A stretch of 64,000 nt of DNA from Gammaproteobacteria bacterium. Lineage in GTDB: Bacteria > Pseudomonadota > Gammaproteobacteria > UBA4575. The notes beneath the pieces are model-generated. The model did not search any database. It had not been told where the DNA came from and saw nothing but the letters and a program-made list of their open reading frames with translations. The DNA is taken from positions 817,560 to 881,559 of the forward strand of contig OZ244982.1 of NCBI GenBank assembly GCA_965223115.1, read 5' to 3'. Of the stretch, positions 2,846 through 35,875 are shown piece after piece; the first letter of the stretch is position 1; the number at the start of each line of letters is the position of its first letter. Position numbers and translations under genes: made by a program.

Positions 2846-4579
2846 ATGCTAACCACAATCAAACGTCGTCCAGAAGTCGAGATCAGCGAACATTTTCAAG
2901 ACCATCCGCCAATATTACAGCGTATCTACGCACAACGGGGCATTAGTAGCGAAGAAGAAGTCAATCATTCTCTTTCTAAGGCACTGCCACCAGGAAAATT
3001 GCTAAACGTAGATATTGGTGTAGAGCTGATCTATCGTTGTATGTGTGAAAAGCAGCGTGTTCTCATCATTGGTGATTTTGATGCAGATGGTGCAACCAGC
3101 ACCGCCTTGTTTATTCGTGCCTTACATAGCTTTGGATTTACAGAAGTCAATTATTTAGTTCCGAACCGCTTTGAATTTGGCTATGGCTTAACCCCTGAAA
3201 TTGTAGAAGTTGCTAGTGAATATGACCCAAGTCTGATTATCACTGTGGATAATGGTATATCGAGTATTGCTGGTGTTGCTGCAGCAAAAGCTAAGGGTTA
3301 CCAAGTGCTTATCACTGATCATCACTTGCCTGGAGAAGAGTTGCCACAGGCAGATGTCATCATTAACCCAAATCAACCACAAGATGAGTTTCCCAGTAAA
3401 CACCTTGCTGGGGTAGGGGTTGTGTTTTATGTGTTGTCTGCTTTACGGACTTATCTTCGCGATCAAGGTTGGTTTACGGTACAACAGTTAACAGAACCTA
3501 ATTTAGCGCAGTTTCTGGATCTTGTTGCCGTAGGGACAGTGGCTGATGTTGCTAGGTTAGACTACAACAATCGAATATTAGTGGATCAAGGTTTACGTAG
3601 AATTCGTGCTGGTAAATGTTGTATTGGTATACATACGTTATTAACTGTTGCGGGGAAAAATCTTCTTCGTACTAGTGCAACTGATCTAGGCTTTGTAATT
3701 GGTCCCAGACTCAATGCGGCGGGACGGCTTGAAGATATGTCATTGGGAATCGAATGTTTACTTACCAATAATGAGTCAAAAGCCACTGAGCTTGCCAAAA
3801 AGCTGAATAATCTCAACGAAGAACGTAAGCAAATTGAGCAAGAGATGCAAATTCAGGCAATTAATGTGCTCAAATCAAAGAGTTTTGCAGGAATCGACGA
3901 TCATCAATATGGAATTGCGCTATATGATGCAGATTGGCATCAAGGTGTAATTGGAATCGTAGCGGCACGACTAAAAGAAAAGTTTCATCGTCCTAGCATT
4001 GTATTTGCTCAAACAAATGACAATGAAATGAAAGGATCTGCACGTTCTATTCAAGGTCTACATATTCGTGATGCATTGGATTTAATGGCAGCACGCCATC
4101 CAGGTTTAATTAATACCTTTGGCGGTCATGCTATGGCGGCAGGGCTTTCAATCGCAAAACATCATTTTGAAAAATTTGCCTTTGTTTTCAATCAAACGAT
4201 AAAAGAACTTGTAACACCAGAACAATTAGAAGCCATACTGTTGTCTGACGGAGAATTAAATGATGCTGAGTTGTGTTTGGAAATTGCTGAAACTTTATTT
4301 CGGGCGGGTCCTTGGGGGCAGGGTTTTCCAGAACCAGTTTTTGATGGTGTATTTAATGTAGTTGAACACCGTATTGTGGGTAAGCATCATTTAAAATTGT
4401 GCTTGACACCACAAGGAAGTGAAAAAAGAATTGATGCAATTGCATTTAATATGGATAAGCACCACTGGCATAAAAGCGCCAAGCAAGTACATATCGCCTA
4501 TCAACTTGCTGTTAATGAGTTTAGAGGAATTCGATCCCCACAGCTCATTATACAATATTTAGAAGCTACAGATGCTTAA
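2846..4579 (+). CDS. recJ: Single-stranded-DNA-specific 5'-3' exonuclease RecJ
   Basis: 577 aa with the DHH motifs (…IIGDFDADGATS…, …ITDHHLPG…) and the DHHA1 GGHAMAAG motif. Confidence 0.9.
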   Translation: MLTTIKRRPEVEISEHFQDHPPILQRIYAQRGISSEEEVNHSLSKALPPGKLLNVDIGVELIYRCMCEKQRVLIIGDFDADGATSTALFIRALHSFGFTEVNYLVPNRFEFGYGLTPEIVEVASEYDPSLIITVDNGISSIAGVAAAKAKGYQVLITDHHLPGEELPQADVIINPNQPQDEFPSKHLAGVGVVFYVLSALRTYLRDQGWFTVQQLTEPNLAQFLDLVAVGTVADVARLDYNNRILVDQGLRRIRAGKCCIGIHTLLTVAGKNLLRTSATDLGFVIGPRLNAAGRLEDMSLGIECLLTNNESKATELAKKLNNLNEERKQIEQEMQIQAINVLKSKSFAGIDDHQYGIALYDADWHQGVIGIVAARLKEKFHRPSIVFAQTNDNEMKGSARSIQGLHIRDALDLMAARHPGLINTFGGHAMAAGLSIAKHHFEKFAFVFNQTIKELVTPEQLEAILLSDGELNDAELCLEIAETLFRAGPWGQGFPEPVFDGVFNVVEHRIVGKHHLKLCLTPQGSEKRIDAIAFNMDKHHWHKSAKQVHIAYQLAVNEFRGIRSPQLIIQYLEATDA

Positions 4580-4651
4580 ATTAATTTGAATTTTACTTTA
4601 CTATACTCGCGCACTATGTGCTAAAGAGAAATCAAGTAGCCTAAGATCGAT

Positions 4652-5747
4652 ATGGAAATTAACCCACTGCAAAATTTAATAGAGGATCTTCAAGTCCGTT
4701 CTGCAAGTCTAAGGGGGTATCTTTGACTATGAAAATAAGCGTGAACAATTAGATGAAGTCAGTCGTGAATTAGAGGATCCTGATATCTGGAATCAACCTG
4801 AGCTAGCTCAAAAACTAGGTAAAGAGCGTGCTAATCTCGAAACAGTAGTAAAAACCATCGAAGATGTAGAAGGCGGCATCAATGATGCCAATGACTTATT
4901 GATATTGGCAGCAGAAGAGGGAGATGATGATACCTTAAAGTCGATTGAGCATGACCTTTTAGAGCTGGAAACACGAGTTGCGAATTTAGAATTTCGTCGA
5001 ATGTTTGCAGGCGAAATGGATCCCAATCATGCCTTTTTAGATATACAGTCAGGTTCTGGCGGTACTGAAGCACAAGATTGGGCTGAGATGTTATTGCGTA
5101 TGTATTTGCGTTGGGGTGAGCGTAAAGGTTTTAAAACTGAATTGATCGAAGTGTCGCCTGGTGAAGTGGCAGGTATAAAAAGCGCAACGATTAAATTCGA
5201 AGGAGAATATGCCTTTGGTTGGCTGCGTACTGAAACTGGTGTACATCGTTTAGTAAGAAAGTCACCATTTGATTCAGGTAATCGAAGACATACTTCATTT
5301 GCAGCAGTATTTGTTTCACCAGAAATTGATGATGATATCGATATTGACATTAACCCCGCTGATTTGCGTATAGATGTTTATCGTGCCAGTGGTGCTGGAG
5401 GACAACACGTTAATAAGACGGAGTCAGCAGTAAGAATTACACATTTGCCCACAGGAGTTGTGACACAATGTCAAAATGATCGTTCGCAACATAAAAATAA
5501 AGATGTTGCCATGAAACAACTTAAGGCGAAATTGTATGAACTAGAGATTCAAAAACGCCAGGGAGAACAACAACAAATCGAGGACAGTAAGGCTGATATA
5601 GGTTGGGGAAGCCAAATACGATCATATGTCTTGGATCAGTCACGTATTAAAGATCTGCGCACTTCAGTTGAAACGGGTAACACGCAAGCTGTACTTGATG
5701 GTGATTTAGACCAATTTATTGAAGCTAGCCTTAAGAGCGGGCTATAA
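4652..5747 (+). CDS. prfB: Peptide chain release factor 2, requiring a programmed +1 ribosomal frameshift (join 4652..4723 with 4725..5747)
   Basis: ATG at 4652 opens a 24-codon frame ending CTT TGA C (4721-4727), preceded by the internal Shine-Dalgarno-like AGGGGG. The +1 frame continues into the 282-aa ORF carrying the GGQ motif (…[11 protein letters not shown]…) and the RF2 SPF motif (…[14 protein letters not shown]…). Confidence 0.9.
4709..4727 (+). other. prfB autoregulatory +1 frameshift site (SD-like AGGGGG, then UAU CUU UGA C)
   Basis: Sequence agggggtatctttgac. This is the canonical RF2 frameshift cassette. Confidence 0.85.
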
Positions 5748-24379: not shown

Positions 24380-24973
24380 ATGAAAACATTGGCACCACGT
24401 AAATCTCAGATTGATCAAGATGAAGTAATAGACCGTGCAATGCATTTGTTTTGGCAGTACGGATATAAAAAAACTTCGGTTGAAGTTCTTATTAAAAAAG
24501 CAGGCGTAAACAGATTTAATTTATATGAAATATTTGGAGGTAAACATAGCTTATATCTTAAGGTATTAGATAAATATCGTGACGAAGTCTTTCTACAGCG
24601 CATGAAAAAGATTGAAGCGCATGAAGATGGTTTACTAGGTATTCAAGAGTATTTTGAATCACTAAAAGAATTTTTAATAGATACAAAAGGGAATTTCACA
24701 TGCTTAATGATGAATTCTCAAATAGAACTTGTTCCGAAAGATAAGAAAGTTTCAGAAAAAGTTTCTTTCTATTTTAATAAAATGGAGAAAACATTTTTTA
24801 ATGCGTTATTACGTGCTAAAAATTTTGGAACGTTATCAAAAGATACAGATATATGCGATTTGGCTAAATTTTTAACTGGAAGCGCACAAGGCATGTGTGT
24901 AGTAAGCAAATCTGAAAATGCAATAGAATTTTTAAATGCTTATACAAGATCGATATTAAAGTCTCTGAAATAA
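24380..24973 (+). CDS. TetR/AcrR-family transcriptional regulator
   Basis: 197 aa. N-terminal HTH (…LFWQYGYKKTSVEVLIKKAGVNRFNLYEIFGGK…). Confidence 0.7.
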   Translation: MKTLAPRKSQIDQDEVIDRAMHLFWQYGYKKTSVEVLIKKAGVNRFNLYEIFGGKHSLYLKVLDKYRDEVFLQRMKKIEAHEDGLLGIQEYFESLKEFLIDTKGNFTCLMMNSQIELVPKDKKVSEKVSFYFNKMEKTFFNALLRAKNFGTLSKDTDICDLAKFLTGSAQGMCVVSKSENAIEFLNAYTRSILKSLK

Positions 24974-25010
24974 AATACAAATTAGATAAATAAAAAAAAT
25001 AGGAGGAATT

Positions 25011-25868
25011 ATGAAACAAGAAGTAACAGTAGATGGGTTGAAAATCAATATAAATATAGAAGAAAGTGGTAGTGGAGATACCACTTTGCTGATGGTGCAT
25101 GGAATTCCTACGAATGCACGATTATGGAGGCATGTGCAGGCACAACTTCCACAATATCGCACCCTTGCCATGGATATGGTGGGGTACGGGCAGTCTGATA
25201 TGCCATTAGATAAATTTAAGCACTCGTTTATGAATCAAGCAGAGGCAGTGAAAGGTGTTATTGAAGGCCTTGGCTTAAAAGGTAAAGTTATTCTGGTTGC
25301 TCATGATCATGGTGGTGGTGTCGCGCAAGTATTCGCAACTAAATATTGCGACTATATATCTCGACTTGTGTTAATCAATCCAGTTTGTTTCGATCAATGG
25401 CCGGTATGTGAAGTAGAAGCCTTGGCAGGTTTAGATGGCGCACCAGATGAGGTGTTAGAACAAGCGCTAGGACAGGCAGTTGCAGGATTTCCTGCCTTGA
25501 TGCGTATGGGGAGTTATGATGGCGCCCCCTTTACCGATAAAAACTGTAAGCAAAATTATTTGCAGTTTTGGGGTCGAGGTCCGGGTATGACTGGATTTAA
25601 ATCTTTAATTCGTATCGCTGCCGATCCACAAAATTCAGATACCGATGTGGATCACAGCAAAATTACTTGTCCTACCATGGTGATGTGGGGTGTGGCAGAT
25701 AACTTTATGTCATGTACGGCTGCAGAAAAACTAAAAGAAAGGATTTCTGGTCCTACCCGTGTGCAATATTTAGAACGTGCCGGACACTGGGTGCAGGAAG
25801 ATCGCCCGGATGAGGTTGCAAAGTATATTAATGACTTTGTAACAGAATGGGCAGGTGTCAATCTGTAG
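25011..25868 (+). CDS. Alpha/beta-fold hydrolase
   Basis: 285 aa. HG oxyanion motif (…LLMVHGIPTN…), nucleophile elbow (…VAHDHGGGVA…). Has its own RBS (aggagg) nine bases upstream. Confidence 0.7.
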   Translation: MKQEVTVDGLKININIEESGSGDTTLLMVHGIPTNARLWRHVQAQLPQYRTLAMDMVGYGQSDMPLDKFKHSFMNQAEAVKGVIEGLGLKGKVILVAHDHGGGVAQVFATKYCDYISRLVLINPVCFDQWPVCEVEALAGLDGAPDEVLEQALGQAVAGFPALMRMGSYDGAPFTDKNCKQNYLQFWGRGPGMTGFKSLIRIAADPQNSDTDVDHSKITCPTMVMWGVADNFMSCTAAEKLKERISGPTRVQYLERAGHWVQEDRPDEVAKYINDFVTEWAGVNL

Positions 25869-26987: not shown

Positions 26988-28088
26988 TTAATGTGGGTTA
27001 TGTTGTTTTTCTAAATATTCATGTGACTGCATTTCAGTTAATCTGCTGGTTGTACGCTTGAACTCATCGCATAGCCGTGAACCGCAATACAATTCCTCAG
27101 GCATTGCTTCAGCAGAAAGGATTAACTTTACATTACGATCATAAAACTCGTCTACTAGATTAATAAATCTTCTTGCTTGATCATCTTTGTTGGCAAATAT
27201 TGGTACATGTGAGATTAATACAGCATTAAATTGTTTAGCAATGTCTATGTAATCAGCCGCACTACGTGGCCCATCACAAATCTCCTTAAAGTCAAACCAA
27301 GCAACATTATTCGTATGTCTGATAGTTTGGATCGGTCTACCATTTATTTCAATTTTTTCCCAAGAGGCGTTACTGCGTTCATTAGCAACGTTAAGAAAGG
27401 CATGTTCTAGCCAATCATGGGATGACACATCTATAGGAGAATTGTACATGTCATTTTTTTGTAAAAATTCAAAGCGATGATCTATTTCCCCATCCAATTC
27501 AATTACTTTAGTGTGTTCTTGTAAGAGCTTTATAGCAGGTAAAAATTTTTCTCTTTGTAAGCCATCTTTATAGAGTAGTGAAGGCTCTACATTCGATGTG
27601 GTAATAAGTACGACATTGTTTTCAAATAAACCTTCCAGTAGACCCGATAAGATCATGGCATCCCCGATATCATTTACATAGAATTCGTCAAAACACAAAA
27701 CTTTTGCTTTAGCAGCAAATTCATCGGCAACCAATTTAAGAGGATCAGGTTTATCGCGATAATTTTTCAACATTTTATGGACATCATCCATAAAACGGTG
27801 AAAATGTAGCCGAATTTTTTTAGAGGTGTGTAAATTCGAAAAAAACAAATCCATTAAGAAAGTTTTACCGCGACCTACACCACCCCAGATGTATAACCCT
27901 TTGATGTAATCAGTATTCGAATTTTTAGCCAATATGGCAACAACTCTATCTATAATAGTGGAATCATCAGGATTGCTAGTATCGAGCTCGTCATATAAAT
28001 CTTGTAGGGCCAGAACAACTTTCTTTTGTTGTACATCTTCCACTAGCTGGTGTTTATGAAGCAGATCTTCGTAGGCTGACGTTATCAT
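26988..28088 (-). CDS. zapE: AFG1-like ATPase / cell division protein ZapE
   Basis: 366 aa. Walker A GGVGRGKTFLMD, Walker B …VLCFDEF…. Confidence 0.8.
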   Translation of the reverse strand: MITSAYEDLLHKHQLVEDVQQKKVVLALQDLYDELDTSNPDDSTIIDRVVAILAKNSNTDYIKGLYIWGGVGRGKTFLMDLFFSNLHTSKKIRLHFHRFMDDVHKMLKNYRDKPDPLKLVADEFAAKAKVLCFDEFYVNDIGDAMILSGLLEGLFENNVVLITTSNVEPSLLYKDGLQREKFLPAIKLLQEHTKVIELDGEIDHRFEFLQKNDMYNSPIDVSSHDWLEHAFLNVANERSNASWEKIEINGRPIQTIRHTNNVAWFDFKEICDGPRSAADYIDIAKQFNAVLISHVPIFANKDDQARRFINLVDEFYDRNVKLILSAEAMPEELYCGSRLCDEFKRTTSRLTEMQSHEYLEKQHNPH

Positions 28089-28517
28089 TAATTCTTGCTT
28101 ATTCTTTTTTAACCCTCATTATCAACTAGTTAGTGACTTCCACAAGTGTGCTTAAAGGTATAGGAGCTGATATTGGATAAAACTCAATAAATTCTTGTAA
28201 TTACGCTGAAAAATTGTGCAGAAATGCTTATTTTTGATTAATTTTTATGCAATGTAGGCAGGGTATTTGGTTTTATCGAAACGTTCTTAATTACTCAAAT
28301 AATTCAAAATGAAATACATCAAAGGAGACTGCTAAATTAAAAAACCTTACTATATCAATATAGTTACGTGAAATAGATGCTATAAATTGTCACAAATGTG
28401 CCAAAAATTGTCGAAATTTCACTAATTTATAGTCCCCCATTAATTTGAAAAATTACTAAGTTGTTGAAAAGACAGTTTTTTGCCTAATTGGCATTAAATG
28501 TGCTTTATATATCGTGA

Positions 28518-28613
28518 GCCTCTCAACATGAAGCAAATATCCTCTATTTGGACATGTTGTTATTCTCGACTCCTCCTGGATTCGGCCGTCTTATTAAGAC
28601 GGCCTTTTTTTTT
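28518..28613 (+). ncRNA. Candidate small RNA (about 95 nt) with its own promoter-like elements and an intrinsic terminator
   Basis: TTGCCT-N17/19-TATATA at 28480-28511, an internal 7-bp stem (caacatg…catgttg, 28524-28560), then the terminator 28584-28613. No plus-strand CDS lies upstream for at least 2.6 kb. Confidence 0.3.
28584..28613 (+). terminator. Strong rho-independent terminator with no upstream plus-strand CDS
   Basis: 10-bp perfect stem ggccgtctta/taagacggcc followed by T9 (28605-28613). Confidence 0.75.
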
Positions 28614-28868
28614 GTTTGTATCCTTTAGTTCATAGATAGACAAGAAAAGGGCAAAACTACCTTGAGCTCCATTCCTAGATATCTATGGTTGATCTTGGTA
28701 TTGATCGTGTCTGACCCTATCGATTCGCTATATAACTCTTAATTATATCGATAAAGCCATTTTTATCGCGCTTTAACACTATTTATTATCCATCGCCTTT
28801 TGTAATTTACGCAAATAGTCAACATCATATCGACTTATATTATTTCTAGGATTTAATCCTATATCATT

Positions 28869-29693
28869 CTATGTTACTAATAAGTTTTTTTCTTGTGAAA
28901 CACCCATATAAGATATTCGAACTAGTATTCCAATAATCTTGCTAGATTTATCATTAAAAACTTTATTCCACACATAATAGTTTTTATTTATAAAGTTATT
29001 CAAATGGGTATTAAGTGAAGCAATTAGCAAATTATCATTAGGAGCAACTAAGAGGTTAAAGTCTGGATTTATTGGTTTGCTCACTTCAATTGCAACTAAT
29101 CCACGGTGTTTTATCTTATTATTCTTGCTAAACGCTACTTTCAATTGATTGCATGCTTTACGGATGTTTTTTTCTAATTTATCTGCTGAATGTATTCTCT
29201 TGCACTCAATGAAAACTGTTTTATCCATGAAGGTAAACGCTGTGTCAGTTGGGGAATTAAAAATAGCAAACAAATATTTATCAGGGTGATAAATTGTTGC
29301 AACGGTGTGAGCTTCAAATAGAAAGTTTCTAGCTTCTTGATTTGAATGTGTTTCATCTATACTAGAATCAGGTCCATTTATTGCCTTTTTTAATTTTTCA
29401 ATTACGCCAGTAAGAGACGATACTTGTTCATTTTTTAGTGATTCGTAAATGCCAATAATTGCCATTGTTTCAAATAGAACATTGACCGCATTGGGGTAAT
29501 TATTTCTAATTTCTTCGCTATTCCACTTGTCATAATTTAGTGTGAAATGTTCAAGATATTCCCCATAACGATCTACTCTCTTGTTATGAATATTTAAACC
29601 TAACTTTTCTAGCCATTTAACTGCTGAAGTATATGTTTTTAACAAACTACTATATGTTTGTGTGTCTATTAAAGATGCGTTAGCTGGTGTCAT
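28869..29693 (-). CDS. Hypothetical protein in the AT-rich island, possible nuclease-like D…ExK segment
   Basis: 274 aa, strongly AT-rich codon usage, no TM or signal peptide. …FMDKTVFIECKR… is weakly reminiscent of a PD-(D/E)xK core. Lies 57 nt downstream of the nucleotidyltransferase gene on the same strand. Confidence 0.35.
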   Translation of the reverse strand: MTPANASLIDTQTYSSLLKTYTSAVKWLEKLGLNIHNKRVDRYGEYLEHFTLNYDKWNSEEIRNNYPNAVNVLFETMAIIGIYESLKNEQVSSLTGVIEKLKKAINGPDSSIDETHSNQEARNFLFEAHTVATIYHPDKYLFAIFNSPTDTAFTFMDKTVFIECKRIHSADKLEKNIRKACNQLKVAFSKNNKIKHRGLVAIEVSKPINPDFNLLVAPNDNLLIASLNTHLNNFINKNYYVWNKVFNDKSSKIIGILVRISYMGVSQEKNLLVT

Positions 29694-29750
29694 TACAATA
29701 TTTATCTAATTTAAGCTTTGGATTATTGGATGAATATATTTTAAATTACT

Positions 29751-30446
29751 CTATTTGAAGTTGCGTTCAATTATTGTTATTAGTTTTTCGTTTAGCTTAT
29801 TTCTTGATTTATCAATATTTGTACTAAATCTAATTTGGCTCTCTATGGCATCATCGAAATATGCATTCTTTTTTAATTCACGCAATCTATCAGAAATATA
29901 ATTACTAACTTGCTCATTGGCTGATGCTACATCTTCAACCATTTTTGAATACCCATCGATTAGAGAAATAATATCTTCTGCATCTTTACTTCCTAATATG
30001 TCACCCTTACCACGGTCGCCAAACGATTCAATCTTTGTAGCTAACAAATAAGTAGGACTAATTACTTTTATTTTTATTCCATCAATTTCAAGCGCACGCG
30101 CGTGCTCGGTAGCTTCTTTGAACCATTTATTTTTAAAGCCGAGTACACTTTCTTCAGTCGGCATAAAATCAACAGGAGTACCATTAAAAACGTAGCGGCA
30201 TATTGGAGCATCTTCTGATTGATCGTGCTTAAAACCTAATGCTTCAACTGTTTCAGAAAATTTATAAAATTCTGATTTTGTTGTTACTTGTATTACTACA
30301 TCAACATCTCTTGTTGGCCGTGGCCTATCATCATCATTTATATATAGTGATACGATCGCACCGCCGACAAACATTAGATCATCTAGCAAAGATTCAAGTG
30401 CCTTTGCTACTTTCAATAGTGAAATAGTATTAGGGTTATTCAACAC
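29751..30446 (-). CDS. Pol-beta-superfamily nucleotidyltransferase (AbiEii / DUF1814-like candidate toxin)
   Basis: 231 aa. hG[GS]-x(n)-DhD signature (…FVGGAIVSLYINDDDRPRPTRDVDVVIQV…). Its start overlaps the stop of the upstream 188-aa gene by 11 nt. Confidence 0.5.
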   Translation of the reverse strand: MLNNPNTISLLKVAKALESLLDDLMFVGGAIVSLYINDDDRPRPTRDVDVVIQVTTKSEFYKFSETVEALGFKHDQSEDAPICRYVFNGTPVDFMPTEESVLGFKNKWFKEATEHARALEIDGIKIKVISPTYLLATKIESFGDRGKGDILGSKDAEDIISLIDGYSKMVEDVASANEQVSNYISDRLRELKKNAYFDDAIESQIRFSTNIDKSRNKLNEKLITIIERNFK

Positions 30447-31002
30447 CTAACTTTTCTTTGATAGCTTGTGCGCCAACTTCGCGTACTCTAACATCGCCGA
30501 CTCTTTGTGAGTCGAGTAAAGCTAACATTTCGTATAGTTCTGGATCTTCTTTGGCAGCTTCAGGTGCGAGTTCATGAATCGGATCACATGAATAACCTTC
30601 AACACCTTCATCGTCAGGCCAAACCCAATGTAGCTGATCGCTAGGTGCTAGTTGCTCATCAAATAGGCCAATAGCATCAGCCGTTGGCATACCCCTGACT
30701 TTTGCTCTACTTGCACCTGCTGGAAATGCGTACTTAGCACCATGAATCATGAACTCAGCCAATGCGCGCCGATTCACTTTTAAATCGCCCTTGTCACGTT
30801 TGCCTTTATTTCCAGATAGTAGGGATGCAGACTTGGCGCGCTCGACAGCATATTTCACAGCACTGGGAGGCATGCCCCCAAGTGATTCACCTAATGACTG
30901 GAATGAATAGTTGTCATCAAGTACAGCTAATTTCATCGCTACAAGTAAGTCTTGTGGCTTGAGTGCATCACTATTTTTCATGGCTATTTCCTTAATGTTC
31001 AA
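30436..31002 (-). CDS. Hypothetical protein, candidate cognate partner (antitoxin or regulator) of the nucleotidyltransferase
   Basis: 188 aa, translationally coupled (11-nt overlap) to the nucleotidyltransferase gene. Lysine-rich central segment. No motif recognised. Confidence 0.35.
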   Translation of the reverse strand: MNIKEIAMKNSDALKPQDLLVAMKLAVLDDNYSFQSLGESLGGMPPSAVKYAVERAKSASLLSGNKGKRDKGDLKVNRRALAEFMIHGAKYAFPAGASRAKVRGMPTADAIGLFDEQLAPSDQLHWVWPDDEGVEGYSCDPIHELAPEAAKEDPELYEMLALLDSQRVGDVRVREVGAQAIKEKLGVE

Positions 31003-31264
31003 TATTCTAGAATTTAGAATATTATATAGTTAATTTAGGAAAATACAAGGGCAAGTCAATAGCAAAGTACATAGGAAATGGTCTAAGTTATTGATTTATA
31101 TGTAGCTGCTTAGCGGCTCTTAGCTACCGTTAGGTGATGGTGATATCTGAGTCGACAACCTCTTCATGGTAGTGATGACTGTCACCCTCGTGGTCAATTT
31201 GCTAGCCGGTTGTGAATACTTCTAGCGCTTCAACTCTGAGCTTGATTAGCGAATAATCTAGGCA

Positions 31265-32314
31265 ATGGCTCTTGGTCCCCTCATGGTAGATTTATGTGCA
31301 GATACCATATCTGCACAGGAACGAAAACTTTTGCAGTCACCTCAAGTAGGTGGCGTAATCCTATTTAGCCGAAATTTTACTTCTATTGAAAAATTAAGTG
31401 CATTGATTGATGAGATCCATGCACTACGCCACCCAAGGCTATTAGTCGCGATTGACCAAGAGGGAGGCCGTGTACAACGGTTGCGCGATGGGTTTACACA
31501 ATTACCTGCGATAAAACTTTTGGGCGATCTTTATGAGAAAGACACCAAACGAGCTTGTGATTTATCTGAAATTAGCGGCTGGTTGATGGCCGCTGAACTT
31601 AGATCAATTGGAATTGATTTTAGTTTTGCACCCGTACTGGATCTTAACTACGGCATTAGCCAAGTTATTGGGGATCGTGCTTTTCATAAAGACCCGGATG
31701 TTGTATCTACCTTGGCTTCACGTTACATACATGGAATGAAAGACGCAGGGATGCAAGCAGTGGGTAAGCATTTTCCAGGTCATGGCTATGTTACTGCGGA
31801 TTCTCATATCGATTTGCCGACAGATACCCGTACATATCAAGATATTTTAATGGCAGACATCATCCCTTTTCAGCGCATGATAGATCACGGTCTTGCTGGG
31901 ATAATGAGTGCACATGTTATTTATGAAAAAGTCGACAAGAAAATCGCTACATTTTCAAAGAAATGGTTAGATACGATGTTACGTCAGCAATTAGAGTTTA
32001 ATGGTGTAATTTTCAGTGATGATTTAAGTATGAAAGCTGCGGATTGTGGTGATGAATACATCGAGCGTATCCATAAAGCTTTATCTGCTGGCTGTGATAT
32101 GGTGCTTGTTTGTAATGCAAGTGAACAAGCTTGTGATGTTGCAGAGAGGCTAGAAAACTATAACAATCCAACTTCTCAGATTCGTTTGACACGAATGCAT
32201 GGAGGCAAAGATCCACTTTCATACTATGAGTTGCGTCAGACAGATAAATGGAAGCATGCTGTAGCACAAGTCGAATCTTACCAAGTCTCGCCTTATGGTG
32301 AATTAACAATTTAA
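31265..32314 (+). CDS. nagZ: Beta-N-acetylhexosaminidase NagZ (peptidoglycan recycling)
   Basis: 349 aa. GH3 N-terminal domain with …VGGVILFSRNF…, …IDQEGGRVQRL…, …KHFPGHG…. Confidence 0.85.
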   Translation: MALGPLMVDLCADTISAQERKLLQSPQVGGVILFSRNFTSIEKLSALIDEIHALRHPRLLVAIDQEGGRVQRLRDGFTQLPAIKLLGDLYEKDTKRACDLSEISGWLMAAELRSIGIDFSFAPVLDLNYGISQVIGDRAFHKDPDVVSTLASRYIHGMKDAGMQAVGKHFPGHGYVTADSHIDLPTDTRTYQDILMADIIPFQRMIDHGLAGIMSAHVIYEKVDKKIATFSKKWLDTMLRQQLEFNGVIFSDDLSMKAADCGDEYIERIHKALSAGCDMVLVCNASEQACDVAERLENYNNPTSQIRLTRMHGGKDPLSYYELRQTDKWKHAVAQVESYQVSPYGELTI

Positions 32315-34038: not shown

Positions 34039-34779
34039 ATGACCCATTTGGCTATTATTGGAGGTACGGGCTTTTCTGATTTCAGTGAGTTAAGTATTCT
34101 ACGCACAGAAAATATTGAAACACCTTATGGATTGCCAAGCGCATCTATAATTATTGGCGAGCTAGCGGGAAAAGAAATTGCGTTTCTTGCCAGACACGGC
34201 GAAAAACATACTATTGCTCCACACAAAATAAATTATCGAGCCAACCTTTGGGCACTAAAAAGTATTGGTGTTAAAAATATTATTGCAATTGCTGCCGTAG
34301 GTGGAATTAACCCAGCGATCCCTCCTAAAAAAATAATTATTCCAGATCAAATTATTGATTATACCTACTCGCGTAAACATACTTTTTTTGAAGAAGAGTC
34401 TGACGGGGTCACCCATATCGATTTTACCAGGCCTTATTGTGAAGAACTTAGGCAACAGCTTATAGATATAACAAAACAGCAGAATATAGATGTATTTAAA
34501 GGCGGTACTTATGGCGCCACTCAAGGGCCACGCTTAGAAACTGCAGCTGAGATTAAGCGTATGGACCGGGATGGCTGTGACATCGTTGGCATGACAGGGA
34601 TGCCTGAAGCGGCTTTGGCTAAAGAATTAGGTTTGTGTTATGCAACGCTTGCGCTATGTGTAAATTGGGCTGCAGGAATTACTAAAAGTGAAATCACTAT
34701 GGAAGAGATTCAACAATCTATTAAAGAAGGAATGATTTCGATAAATCAAGCATTACTACGATTTATTAAAACAATGTAA
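34039..34779 (+). CDS. mtnP: S-methyl-5'-thioadenosine phosphorylase (PNP/MTAP family)
   Basis: 246 aa. …LAIIGGTGFSD… N-terminus and …GCDIVGMTGMPEA… motif of MTAP. Confidence 0.75.
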   Translation: MTHLAIIGGTGFSDFSELSILRTENIETPYGLPSASIIIGELAGKEIAFLARHGEKHTIAPHKINYRANLWALKSIGVKNIIAIAAVGGINPAIPPKKIIIPDQIIDYTYSRKHTFFEEESDGVTHIDFTRPYCEELRQQLIDITKQQNIDVFKGGTYGATQGPRLETAAEIKRMDRDGCDIVGMTGMPEAALAKELGLCYATLALCVNWAAGITKSEITMEEIQQSIKEGMISINQALLRFIKTM

Positions 34780-35188
34780 TAAAAAATTAATATTTAAATT
34801 TTCTCTTAATAGAAATATTGAGACAGATATATTACTCCAAAATAAATTAAATTTATTTTACAAGTTTATGTAAAGTAAAAATTTTTATTATTTAATTTAA
34901 AGTAAAAAATTTCAGAATGCACATTCGTCAAAAAAACGACGTATTGTGTTTGTTTTTTCTTATATAAAAATTTGTAACAAACTTCACAGTTTTGATACCT
35001 ATATACAATTTTAATGCACTTAACAAAACTATGTTTTGAATTTTATATAGTTTTAAGTGTTTGTAGTAATTTTATATTAGCAATATGTTAATTTATATTT
35101 AAAAATTACTAACGTAGGTTTAGGGGAGATATCAATAATGAGATTGATTAAGAGCTAATTTAACTAGTATTAACTTTATAAATACTAG

Positions 35189-35875
35189 TTAAGAATCTGC
35201 AGGGCGGATTTCTACCAGTATGCCTAATATGGGATGATCAAGGTAGTGTAGTTGTTTGCTGCGCATTTTGCGGTGAGTTTTAATTGCAAAATCTGCAAGC
35301 ACGCGATCTCTGCCTAGTGCATTATCATTACCTATTGTGTTTGCAGAAAAAGGTCGGCGATAGGCTAAGTCAGTATAGACGTGTAAATAGCGTCCCAACA
35401 CAATTTTTATTGTGCCATCTAATTCATTTACAGGATGGTTTTTAGGATGTTTGCGGTCACTAAAGTCTGTTTGTACAAATGACCTCTCTCTAAACTCATT
35501 GCGATAATCTTTGCCGGCATGGATACGTACGGGGATAGCCTCTTCTTTTGCCAGCCCAGGCTGTAACCAAGCAGCATGCTTTAATACTTTATAGCGCCCT
35601 GTTTTATTTAATGCAGCGGCTTCGTTGGTTAATGTTAAAGCTTCGTTGGGATAAGGAACAAATCCATAGTTTACTGCACTGTCATCCAGAACAAGTGAGC
35701 CTTGTAAGTTGGGAATAACTGGTTCTGTAGATATATGTATTGAGTTTGCAGAGCCCGCTTTTGTATCCGTAAAAAAGATCATTTCAACTATATAATCTTT
35801 TGCATTTGCAGCTGGTGAAACAAGAAGAGCAAATAAAATTACGCGTGCTATATTTTTATTGATTATGTTAATCAT
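35189..35875 (-). CDS. CsiV-like periplasmic protein (DUF2066 family)
   Basis: 228 aa. Signal peptide then …YIVEMIFF… opening typical of the CsiV family. Located immediately downstream of mfd, as csiV is in Vibrio. Confidence 0.4.
   Translation of the reverse strand: MINIINKNIARVILFALLVSPAANAKDYIVEMIFFTDTKAGSANSIHISTEPVIPNLQGSLVLDDSAVNYGFVPYPNEALTLTNEAAALNKTGRYKVLKHAAWLQPGLAKEEAIPVRIHAGKDYRNEFRERSFVQTDFSDRKHPKNHPVNELDGTIKIVLGRYLHVYTDLAYRRPFSANTIGNDNALGRDRVLADFAIKTHRKMRSKQLHYLDHPILGILVEIRPADS

Follow-up and report, generated by a model that had tools for sequence, protein, structure and literature searches.

An inserted island between zapE and nagZ of a Thiotrichales-like gammaproteobacterium carries a putative two-gene PDC-M21A/B toxin-antitoxin module and a truncated nuclease gene

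Toxin-antitoxin systems with toxins of the nucleotidyltransferase kind have been described from several bacteria, and two of them come closest to the gene pair considered here. In the AbiE systems of Streptococcus agalactiae and Lactococcus lactis, the gene for a winged-helix partner comes first and is overlapped by the gene for a DUF1814 nucleotidyltransferase toxin, AbiEii, whose motifs I-IV read hG[G/S]...DhD, KLxAaxxR and +DxxD (PMC3985639); a threonine stands two residues before the DxD (T65, with D67 and D69), and the promoter carries an inverted repeat. The MenAT1 and MenAT3 systems of Mycobacterium tuberculosis have related toxins and antitoxins of two kinds, MenA1 being a 68-residue helical peptide and MenA3 a COG5340 protein. 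Both MenT1, at T39, and AbiEii, at T65, are auto-phosphorylated on binding of the antitoxin and are thereby switched off. A third relevant group has been catalogued rather than characterized: the PDC systems of PADLOC are 145 phage defense candidates that were found embedded in BREX, DISARM or type I restriction-modification (RM) loci (bioRxiv 10.1101/2024.01.29.577857), and one of them, PDC-M21, derives from a cassette of three families, FAM_01665>>FAM_00091>>FAM_01402, with 166 instances (bioRxiv 10.1101/2024.01.29.577857 supplement). Here we analyze a 64,000-nucleotide stretch of contig OZ244982.1 (hereafter, the window) from an uncultured Thiotrichales-like gammaproteobacterium, in which three genes, designated A, B and C, lie between zapE and nagZ. 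The explanation that we favor, and consider probable, is that ~2.6 kb of DNA was acquired horizontally at a recurrent landing site after the terminator of a small RNA (sRNA) gene, and that this DNA holds a two-gene PDC-M21A/B toxin-antitoxin module, composed of genes A and B, together with an unrelated and decaying nuclease gene, C.

The three minus-strand open reading frames (ORFs) of a preliminary description of this DNA lie where it had placed them, and its naming of the flanking genes as zapE and nagZ also stands (AFG1_ATPase, E 4e-120; Glyco_hydro_3, E 1e-80). A ZapE scan of the genome collection yielded 19 relatives with 69-80% ZapE identity, all of them metagenome-assembled genomes of uncultured Thiotrichales or Gammaproteobacteria. 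Fourteen of the 19 have 480-660 bp between the divergent zapE and nagZ genes, as compared to 3,176 bp in the window; among the remaining five, contig ends interrupt two loci, L028 (relatives' loci are given here by such numbers) has another synteny, and L013 and L022 have expansions of their own. L028, where an argininosuccinate/adenylosuccinate-lyase-like ORF (read from sequence) lies upstream of zapE, was left uncounted for or against an insertion. Homology between the window and its relatives extends from zapE to 28612-28620 and returns at ~31215-31227, about 45 nt before the nagZ start, and these breakpoints delimit a foreign segment at ~28614-31215. Its left edge is sharp, directly after the T-run of the sRNA terminator, and its right edge is approximate to ~10 nt. 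The synteny comparison thus bears out the earlier suspicion of an island at this spot: the ~2.6-kb segment is a genuine insertion of horizontally acquired DNA. It represents mobile cargo of an ordinary sort, for defense or addiction, rather than a novel type of system, and it holds two unrelated items, the A-B module and the solitary nuclease gene C.

The two relatives with expansions of their own carry different cargo at the same spot. In L022 this comprises a TIR protein of the ThsB type and its partner PDC-M50A (E 1.9e-67 and 2.6e-51), a DUF3455 protein and a further ORF in which an RNAFSH motif (Rx4H, HEPN-type) was read by eye and which has no Pfam or PADLOC match; in L013 an IS3 element is found together with several unknown genes and an SRAP gene that is truncated. 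In this lineage the spot is thus a hotspot at which the cargo varies and is partly defense-related.

Genes A and B of the window are adjacent and match the PADLOC models PDC-M21A and PDC-M21B (E 2.5e-31 and 1.4e-57), with the same gene order and the same overlapping gene junction as PDC-M21. The pair had been put forward as an uncharacterized module; since PADLOC recognizes both of its genes, the family proves to be a catalogued one, though the catalogued form has a PP2C phosphatase as its third gene. The window differs from PDC-M21 in precisely this respect, as it has no PP2C (PDC-M21C) gene, and also in that the pair lies outside any BREX, DISARM or RM locus. No PP2C homolog or remnant was detected in the 64-kb window (best E 0.59), so the PDC-M21C component of the cassette is absent and the window holds the two-gene form. 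This is the commoner form, and it is also seen in the closest A-B relatives (L001-L004) and in distant chromosomal copies (L090, L094). The locus illustrates cleanly, in a natural setting, how this PADLOC candidate family looks in its two-gene form. Wherever the pair occurs, its genes are direct neighbors that overlap slightly or leave a small gap, and the contexts are otherwise unrelated; the copy in L004, for example, adjoins an integrase and a transposase. In one locus (L092, 8001-8739), the antitoxin-like gene is intact and the nucleotidyltransferase has decayed to a 72-residue stub, leaving an orphan antitoxin or regulator.

The three-gene form is best seen on plasmids. Homologs of B were found on 116 plasmids, some of only 8 kb, and in five of the six plasmid loci that were sampled the order is regulator, nucleotidyltransferase and a protein of ~224 residues, which is annotated as a serine/threonine phosphatase in three cases. 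These five loci (L096, on pAJ14, at 3122-5126; L097, L098, L099 and L100) hold the full PDC-M21 operon of winged-helix regulator, nucleotidyltransferase and PP2C, with overlapping stops and starts. The third proteins of L096 and L097 match the PDC-M21C models (E 2.2e-23 and 2.1e-16) and PP2C, and those of the other three are similar to that of L096 (E 1.9e-14 to 6.8e-54). The five include two Acinetobacter plasmids of 8 kb; the neighbor of one locus is brxL, and that of another is a TrlF ATPase gene. We found no paper describing the regulator-nucleotidyltransferase-PP2C operon of PDC-M21.

Gene B (29751-30446, minus strand) encodes a Pol-beta-fold nucleotidyltransferase of the DUF1814/AbiEii-MenT kind, 231 residues in length, which is a putative toxin. 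The hGG...DVDVV signature pointed out in the preliminary description is present, and so is the 11-nt overlap with the stop codon of gene A, given the GTG start at 30446. We favor this long start since close homologs share the residues that precede an alternative TTG start; the public annotation has a later start and a product of 221 residues. Among 49 members of the B family, G28, G29, D47, D49, D93, K138, D155 and D158 are invariant, and T45 and R145 are at least 90% conserved, with serine at the T45 position in some members. All of the AbiEii/DUF1814 motifs can be recognized: motifs I and II as FVG28G29...T45-R-D47-V-D49, motif III as K138-I-E-S-F-G-D-R145 (KIESFGDR), and motif IV, the +DxxD pentad specific to DUF1814, as K154-D155-A-E-D158 (KDAED). 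The best solved relative of the family profile is MenT1 (8AN4; E 1.1e-6), which matches across the catalytic core and motifs III and IV; sequence similarity to MenT1 is low, and the single B sequence reaches only E 0.18. The spacing of T45-R-D47-V-D49 equals that of T39/D41 in MenT1 and of T65 with D67/D69 in AbiEii, and the two phosphoacceptor contexts, FTRDVD and PTRDVD, align, bringing T45 onto T39 of MenT1. The AbiEii model of PADLOC matches a plasmid homolog (E 2.4e-7) and not the B of the window, in the PHROGs collection none of the three genes has a match, and NCBIfam yielded no match of note.

It could be argued that B is a harmless modifying enzyme, e.g., an antibiotic or small-molecule nucleotidyltransferase, under a MarR-like repressor, and no toxin. 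Some A homologs are publicly annotated as MarR family regulators, and the best full-length Pfam match of B is DUF2204 (21.1 bits, cut-off 20.3), a nucleotidyltransferase family of unknown function. We consider such an enzyme quite unlikely: the best NCBIfam match of B (E 0.018) does not rise above noise and falls far short of the curated cut-offs, the signature of the DUF1814 toxins is present in motifs III and IV, the phosphoacceptor threonine is conserved, the closest solved relative is a toxin, and the overlapping two-gene layout, on plasmids and near integrases, is typical of toxin-antitoxin systems.

The first gene of the pair, A (30436-30981, minus strand), encodes a winged-helix protein that is a putative antitoxin and autorepressor. 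Its likeliest start is the ATG at 30981, which is preceded by an AAGGA ribosome-binding site at a distance of 7 nt and gives a product of 181 residues; the 188-residue protein reported earlier exists as an ORF, whose alternative TTG start (31002) sits within a palindrome. Beyond the winged helix, A has a C-terminal domain that lacks any solved relative. The view of the pair as AbiE-type accordingly holds for its layout and for the toxin family, with motifs I-IV and the phosphoacceptor threonine, and fails for the partner, which is not AbiEi, as the AbiEi-type C-terminal domain (AbiEi 6Y8Q, Rv2827c homology) is absent from A; nor is A of either MenA kind. Upstream of A, sequence reading and a repeat search located a putative A-B promoter (31001-31026, minus strand) with a TATAAT -10 box (31026-31021), which is overlapped by a perfect 9-bp inverted repeat, AATATTCTA-N5-TAGAATATT (31023-31001), a candidate operator for A and a further likeness to AbiE. 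The palindrome is kept ahead of gene A in L001 and L004, the two loci closest to that of the window, in the midst of diverged DNA, and its conservation at the promoter fits autorepression by A; we infer that A would repress the A-B operon at this palindrome. The ~130 nt between the promoter and the nagZ-side junction (31082-31215) match neither the intergenic DNA of the relatives nor other A-B loci, and read on the minus strand like a short acidic, His-rich coding remnant.

By analogy with the described systems, free B would add nucleotides to the 3' ends of tRNA as the MenT toxins do, halting translation and growth, and the C-terminal domain of A would neutralize B, most likely by inducing auto-phosphorylation of T45, which is a type VII mechanism. 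The strongest indirect support for an off-switch at T45 comes from the three-gene relatives, whose dedicated PP2C argues for control of this toxin family by phosphorylation. That a phosphatase is reserved for a toxin with a conserved phosphoacceptor threonine also implies a built-in step of re-arming. Taken together, the conserved T-x-D-x-D, the dedicated PP2C and the C-terminal domain of A without a solved relative predict that the whole PDC-M21 family is switched by phosphorylation of the toxin. If confirmed, this would mean that the type VII mechanism recently proposed for MenAT and AbiE also operates with antitoxins of a third, unrelated class. For its carrier, the A-B module could stabilize the island, abort phage infection, or both.

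Gene C (28780-29693, minus strand) is a gene of 304 codons for a nuclease of the PD-(D/E)xK fold, and it is interrupted by a premature in-frame TAG at codon 275 (28869-28871, minus strand), where homologs have Cys, Thr or Val, so that its product has 274 residues. The homologs run ~23 residues past this position, and the window copy is without the last 29 codons of the ancestral frame. The frame past the TAG (...NLLVT*NDIGLNPRN...KAMDNK) aligns with the tails of the homologs, e.g., with ...NLLVTCSQWGLNPRN... in P0002, and in tblastn the extended frame aligned through residue 303. The TAG may represent recent pseudogenization or a base-call error; as the stop shortens it, the gene as read here is probably decaying. 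The preliminary description had regarded the 274-residue protein as an orphan. It is instead the product of a truncated gene from a large family whose members, typically of 297-300 residues, have no family name: a word-indexed search returned four homologs, and an exhaustive profile search returned 1,633 representative clusters at E <=1e-3, with 909 of them at <=1e-10. The D...ECK segment noticed earlier is indeed there, as D150...E163-C-K165. The predicted structure (pLDDT 77.8, pTM 0.80) consists of a helical N-terminal domain and an alpha-beta-beta-beta-alpha-beta core, and E127, D150, E163 and K165, which are nearly invariant in the family, fall on the elements expected of the fold, with the first glutamate on helix 1, the aspartate on strand 2 and the ExK on strand 3. 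Pfam and PADLOC return weak, scattered PD-(D/E)xK matches across the family, none at family threshold, and the window's C matches no PADLOC model, PDC-M21C included. From Shedu SduA, the CBASS nucleases Cap4 and NucC, McrC and the Pfam families PDDEXK_9 and Mrr_cat, it differs by its own N-terminal helical domain, by being solitary and by its truncation here.

The genomic company of C sets it apart from A and B. In ~29 independent loci with C homologs, no neighboring family recurs in more than two loci, and there is no A, B or PP2C homolog; conversely, no C homolog was found at any other A-B locus examined. The neighbors are rich in defense genes, including PARIS AriAB (E 1.9e-200), MADS, AbiJ, SIR2/ThsA, Avs2, WYL, a type I restriction enzyme and BrnTA, and mobile-element genes (Tn3, Mutator and rve transposases) are also found nearby. 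A pair of genes for 185- and 246-residue proteins beside the C homolog of L006 was considered as possible A and B homologs, and tblastn found no similarity. A search for C homologs in viral-contig contexts was empty, and the phage collection held no match. Judged by its sequence relatives and their surroundings, C is a solitary nuclease typical of defense islands and mobile elements, and independent of A-B. The three genes had been grouped earlier as one unit, and a three-gene system with the nuclease as effector, or as a second effector controlled by the A-B pair, would be in keeping with their common strand, with the mere 57 nt between B and C, in which there is no terminator-like site, with the near-equal GC content at third codon positions (GC3) of B (0.228) and C (0.230), and with the existence of a three-gene form of PDC-M21. 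The true third gene of PDC-M21 is a PP2C phosphatase, however, and not a nuclease, and C is truncated by a stop codon; since C never co-occurs with A-B at the other loci examined, the three genes do not form one unit, and we hold a three-gene system of this kind to be highly improbable.

Base composition bears out the AT-richness ascribed to the island only in part. The segment at 28614-31215 has a GC content of 0.352, as compared to 0.372 for the window, a value matched or undercut in 22% of equal-sized windows; the part with B and C stands at 0.316, among the lowest 2% of windows, and gene A, at 0.452, is above the window average, against 0.341 for B. The description as AT-rich therefore holds for B and C only, and not for gene A. 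Two further sharp AT-rich troughs lie outside the island, at 34750-35249 (GC 0.222) and 24500-24999 (GC 0.280).

Several of the observations weigh against our preferred reading of the locus as an acquired island with a two-gene PDC-M21A/B toxin-antitoxin module. The window's island has no integrase or insertion sequence, as had been correctly remarked in the preliminary description, and it is not bounded by a direct repeat or a second copy of the sRNA. The two genes of the pair, which always travel with each other, are markedly unlike in composition in the window (GC3 of A, 0.319). The Pfam AbiEii match of B (PF08843; 27.1 bits, cut-off 22.5) is marginal and confined to the N-terminal residues 18-69, and neither the sequence nor the structure of A matches AbiEi (6Y8Q; COG5340), Rv2827c or the MenA antitoxins beyond a generic winged helix, so that the mode of B neutralization rests on analogy. 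In the literature searched, PDC-M21 is named only in the supplement of the PADLOC preprint, and no member has been experimentally tested. Two more such points bear on the role of the module rather than on its identity: the two-gene cassette of the first two families (713 instances) was rejected as a defense candidate by the PADLOC authors (bioRxiv 10.1101/2024.01.29.577857), and AbiE of S. agalactiae gave no protection against 32 coliphages (preprint), so a defense role is not to be assumed for A-B.

These last two points also favor the possible, if doubtful, alternative that A-B is nothing but a selfish addiction module, or else a remnant in decay, that merely stabilizes the surrounding DNA and has no part in phage defense. 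The family is frequent on small plasmids with few other genes, its chromosomal copies are scattered singly among metabolic genes, one locus retains an intact A beside the stub of B, the S. agalactiae result was obtained in E. coli, and AbiE is known to stabilize plasmids (PMC3985639). Against it, the three-gene relatives owe their selection as candidates to their location within BREX, DISARM or type I RM loci, and two of the sampled plasmid copies adjoin brxL and the TrlF ATPase gene, respectively; the TIR pair at the same chromosomal spot in L022 is Thoeris-type, and both AbiE of L. lactis and SanaTA, a DUF1814 system, are stated to protect against phage (preprint). Nothing in the locus overturns current understanding; its interest is modest, and lies chiefly in its value as a test case for control of the PDC-M21 family by phosphorylation and for the hotspot beside the sRNA gene.

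Adjoining the island on the left is native DNA. The ~780-bp stretch that had been described as non-coding includes ~90 nt that are the cut-off tail of gene C, and the rest includes a native candidate sRNA gene of ~98 nt (28516-28613, plus strand), conserved and structured, whose inferred 5' end could lie up to ~7 nt further downstream. A promoter scan placed a promoter-like hexamer pair, TTGGCA-N16-TATCGT, just upstream (28488-28515, plus strand), of which the TTGGCA hexamer is kept in relatives, with its spacing. In the predicted RNA, a CAACAUG/CAUGUUG stem is accompanied by a CUCCUCC that is invariant and single-stranded and by a GC-rich hairpin with a U9 run behind it, i.e., a Rho-independent terminator, which is the hairpin and T9 run noted earlier on the plus strand at 28584-28613. 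It is conserved in at least 17 relatives with a mean column identity of 87%; its minimum free energy is -33.5 kcal/mol (z = -6.18), a stability reached by none of 200 shuffles, and two base pairs of the terminator are kept through changes on both sides, in two and seven sequences. The surrounding segment, 28334-28620, is native intergenic DNA, with 75-91% identity in every close relative for which the intergenic region was recovered, except L027. What had been taken for an orphan terminated transcript of the island is thus a conserved native candidate sRNA gene, and the annotation of the locus gains both from setting it apart from the island content and from the correction of the truncated nuclease gene.

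Rfam searches of 27500-31800 and 28300-28660 gave sub-threshold matches only, the best of them to RF02278 (32.2 bits against a gathering threshold of 50), RF00519 mmgR (25.6 against 41) and RF02837 anti-hemB (21.8 against 49.5), and ARAGORN found no tRNA or tmRNA. The likeness to these anti-Shine-Dalgarno sRNA families, of which RF02278 is a toxic sRNA of Betaproteobacteria, lies in a C/U-rich stretch just before a Rho-independent terminator; besides its scores, the candidate differs in host lineage.

The sRNA gene is single copy in the window, and extra "sibling" copies bracket the cargo modules of the two expanded relatives, at 4185-4285 in L013 and at 5474-5572 and 4161-4262 in L022. All three share an exact 28-nt 5' flank, CAGGTGTACATAAATTAACCTAAAAACG, which is absent from the window. 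A duplication of the 3' end in the manner of an att site was considered for these pieces; the copies align over their full length, the 5' stem being kept via a G.U pair, so that they look like sibling copies rather than simple att remnants. They may be functional paralogs, island termini or recombination anchors. Two bolder proposals can be entertained, though we think them unlikely. In one, the terminator of this lineage-specific sRNA gene is a docking site where defense cargo is swapped without a resident integrase; the cargo would travel with the sibling sRNA copies, as in L013 and L022, which could serve as recombination anchors or rewire sRNA dosage. In the other, which is separate, two-gene PDC-M21A/B modules are type VII systems with a new antitoxin fold, and their toxin would be re-armed by phosphatases of the host, the three-gene forms carrying a PP2C of their own.

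Outside the island, a 285-residue ORF at 25011-25868 (plus strand) has 94-99% protein identity in 13 relatives (L010, L012-L018, L020-L023; that of L017 is partial, cut by the locus end), in which ZapE and Mdh are only 74-85% identical, and 64-67% identity in four others. This bimodal distribution suggests a recent exchange of the gene. The spacing from mdh to the hydrolase gene is also variable among the relatives, from 0.1 to 3.2 kb.

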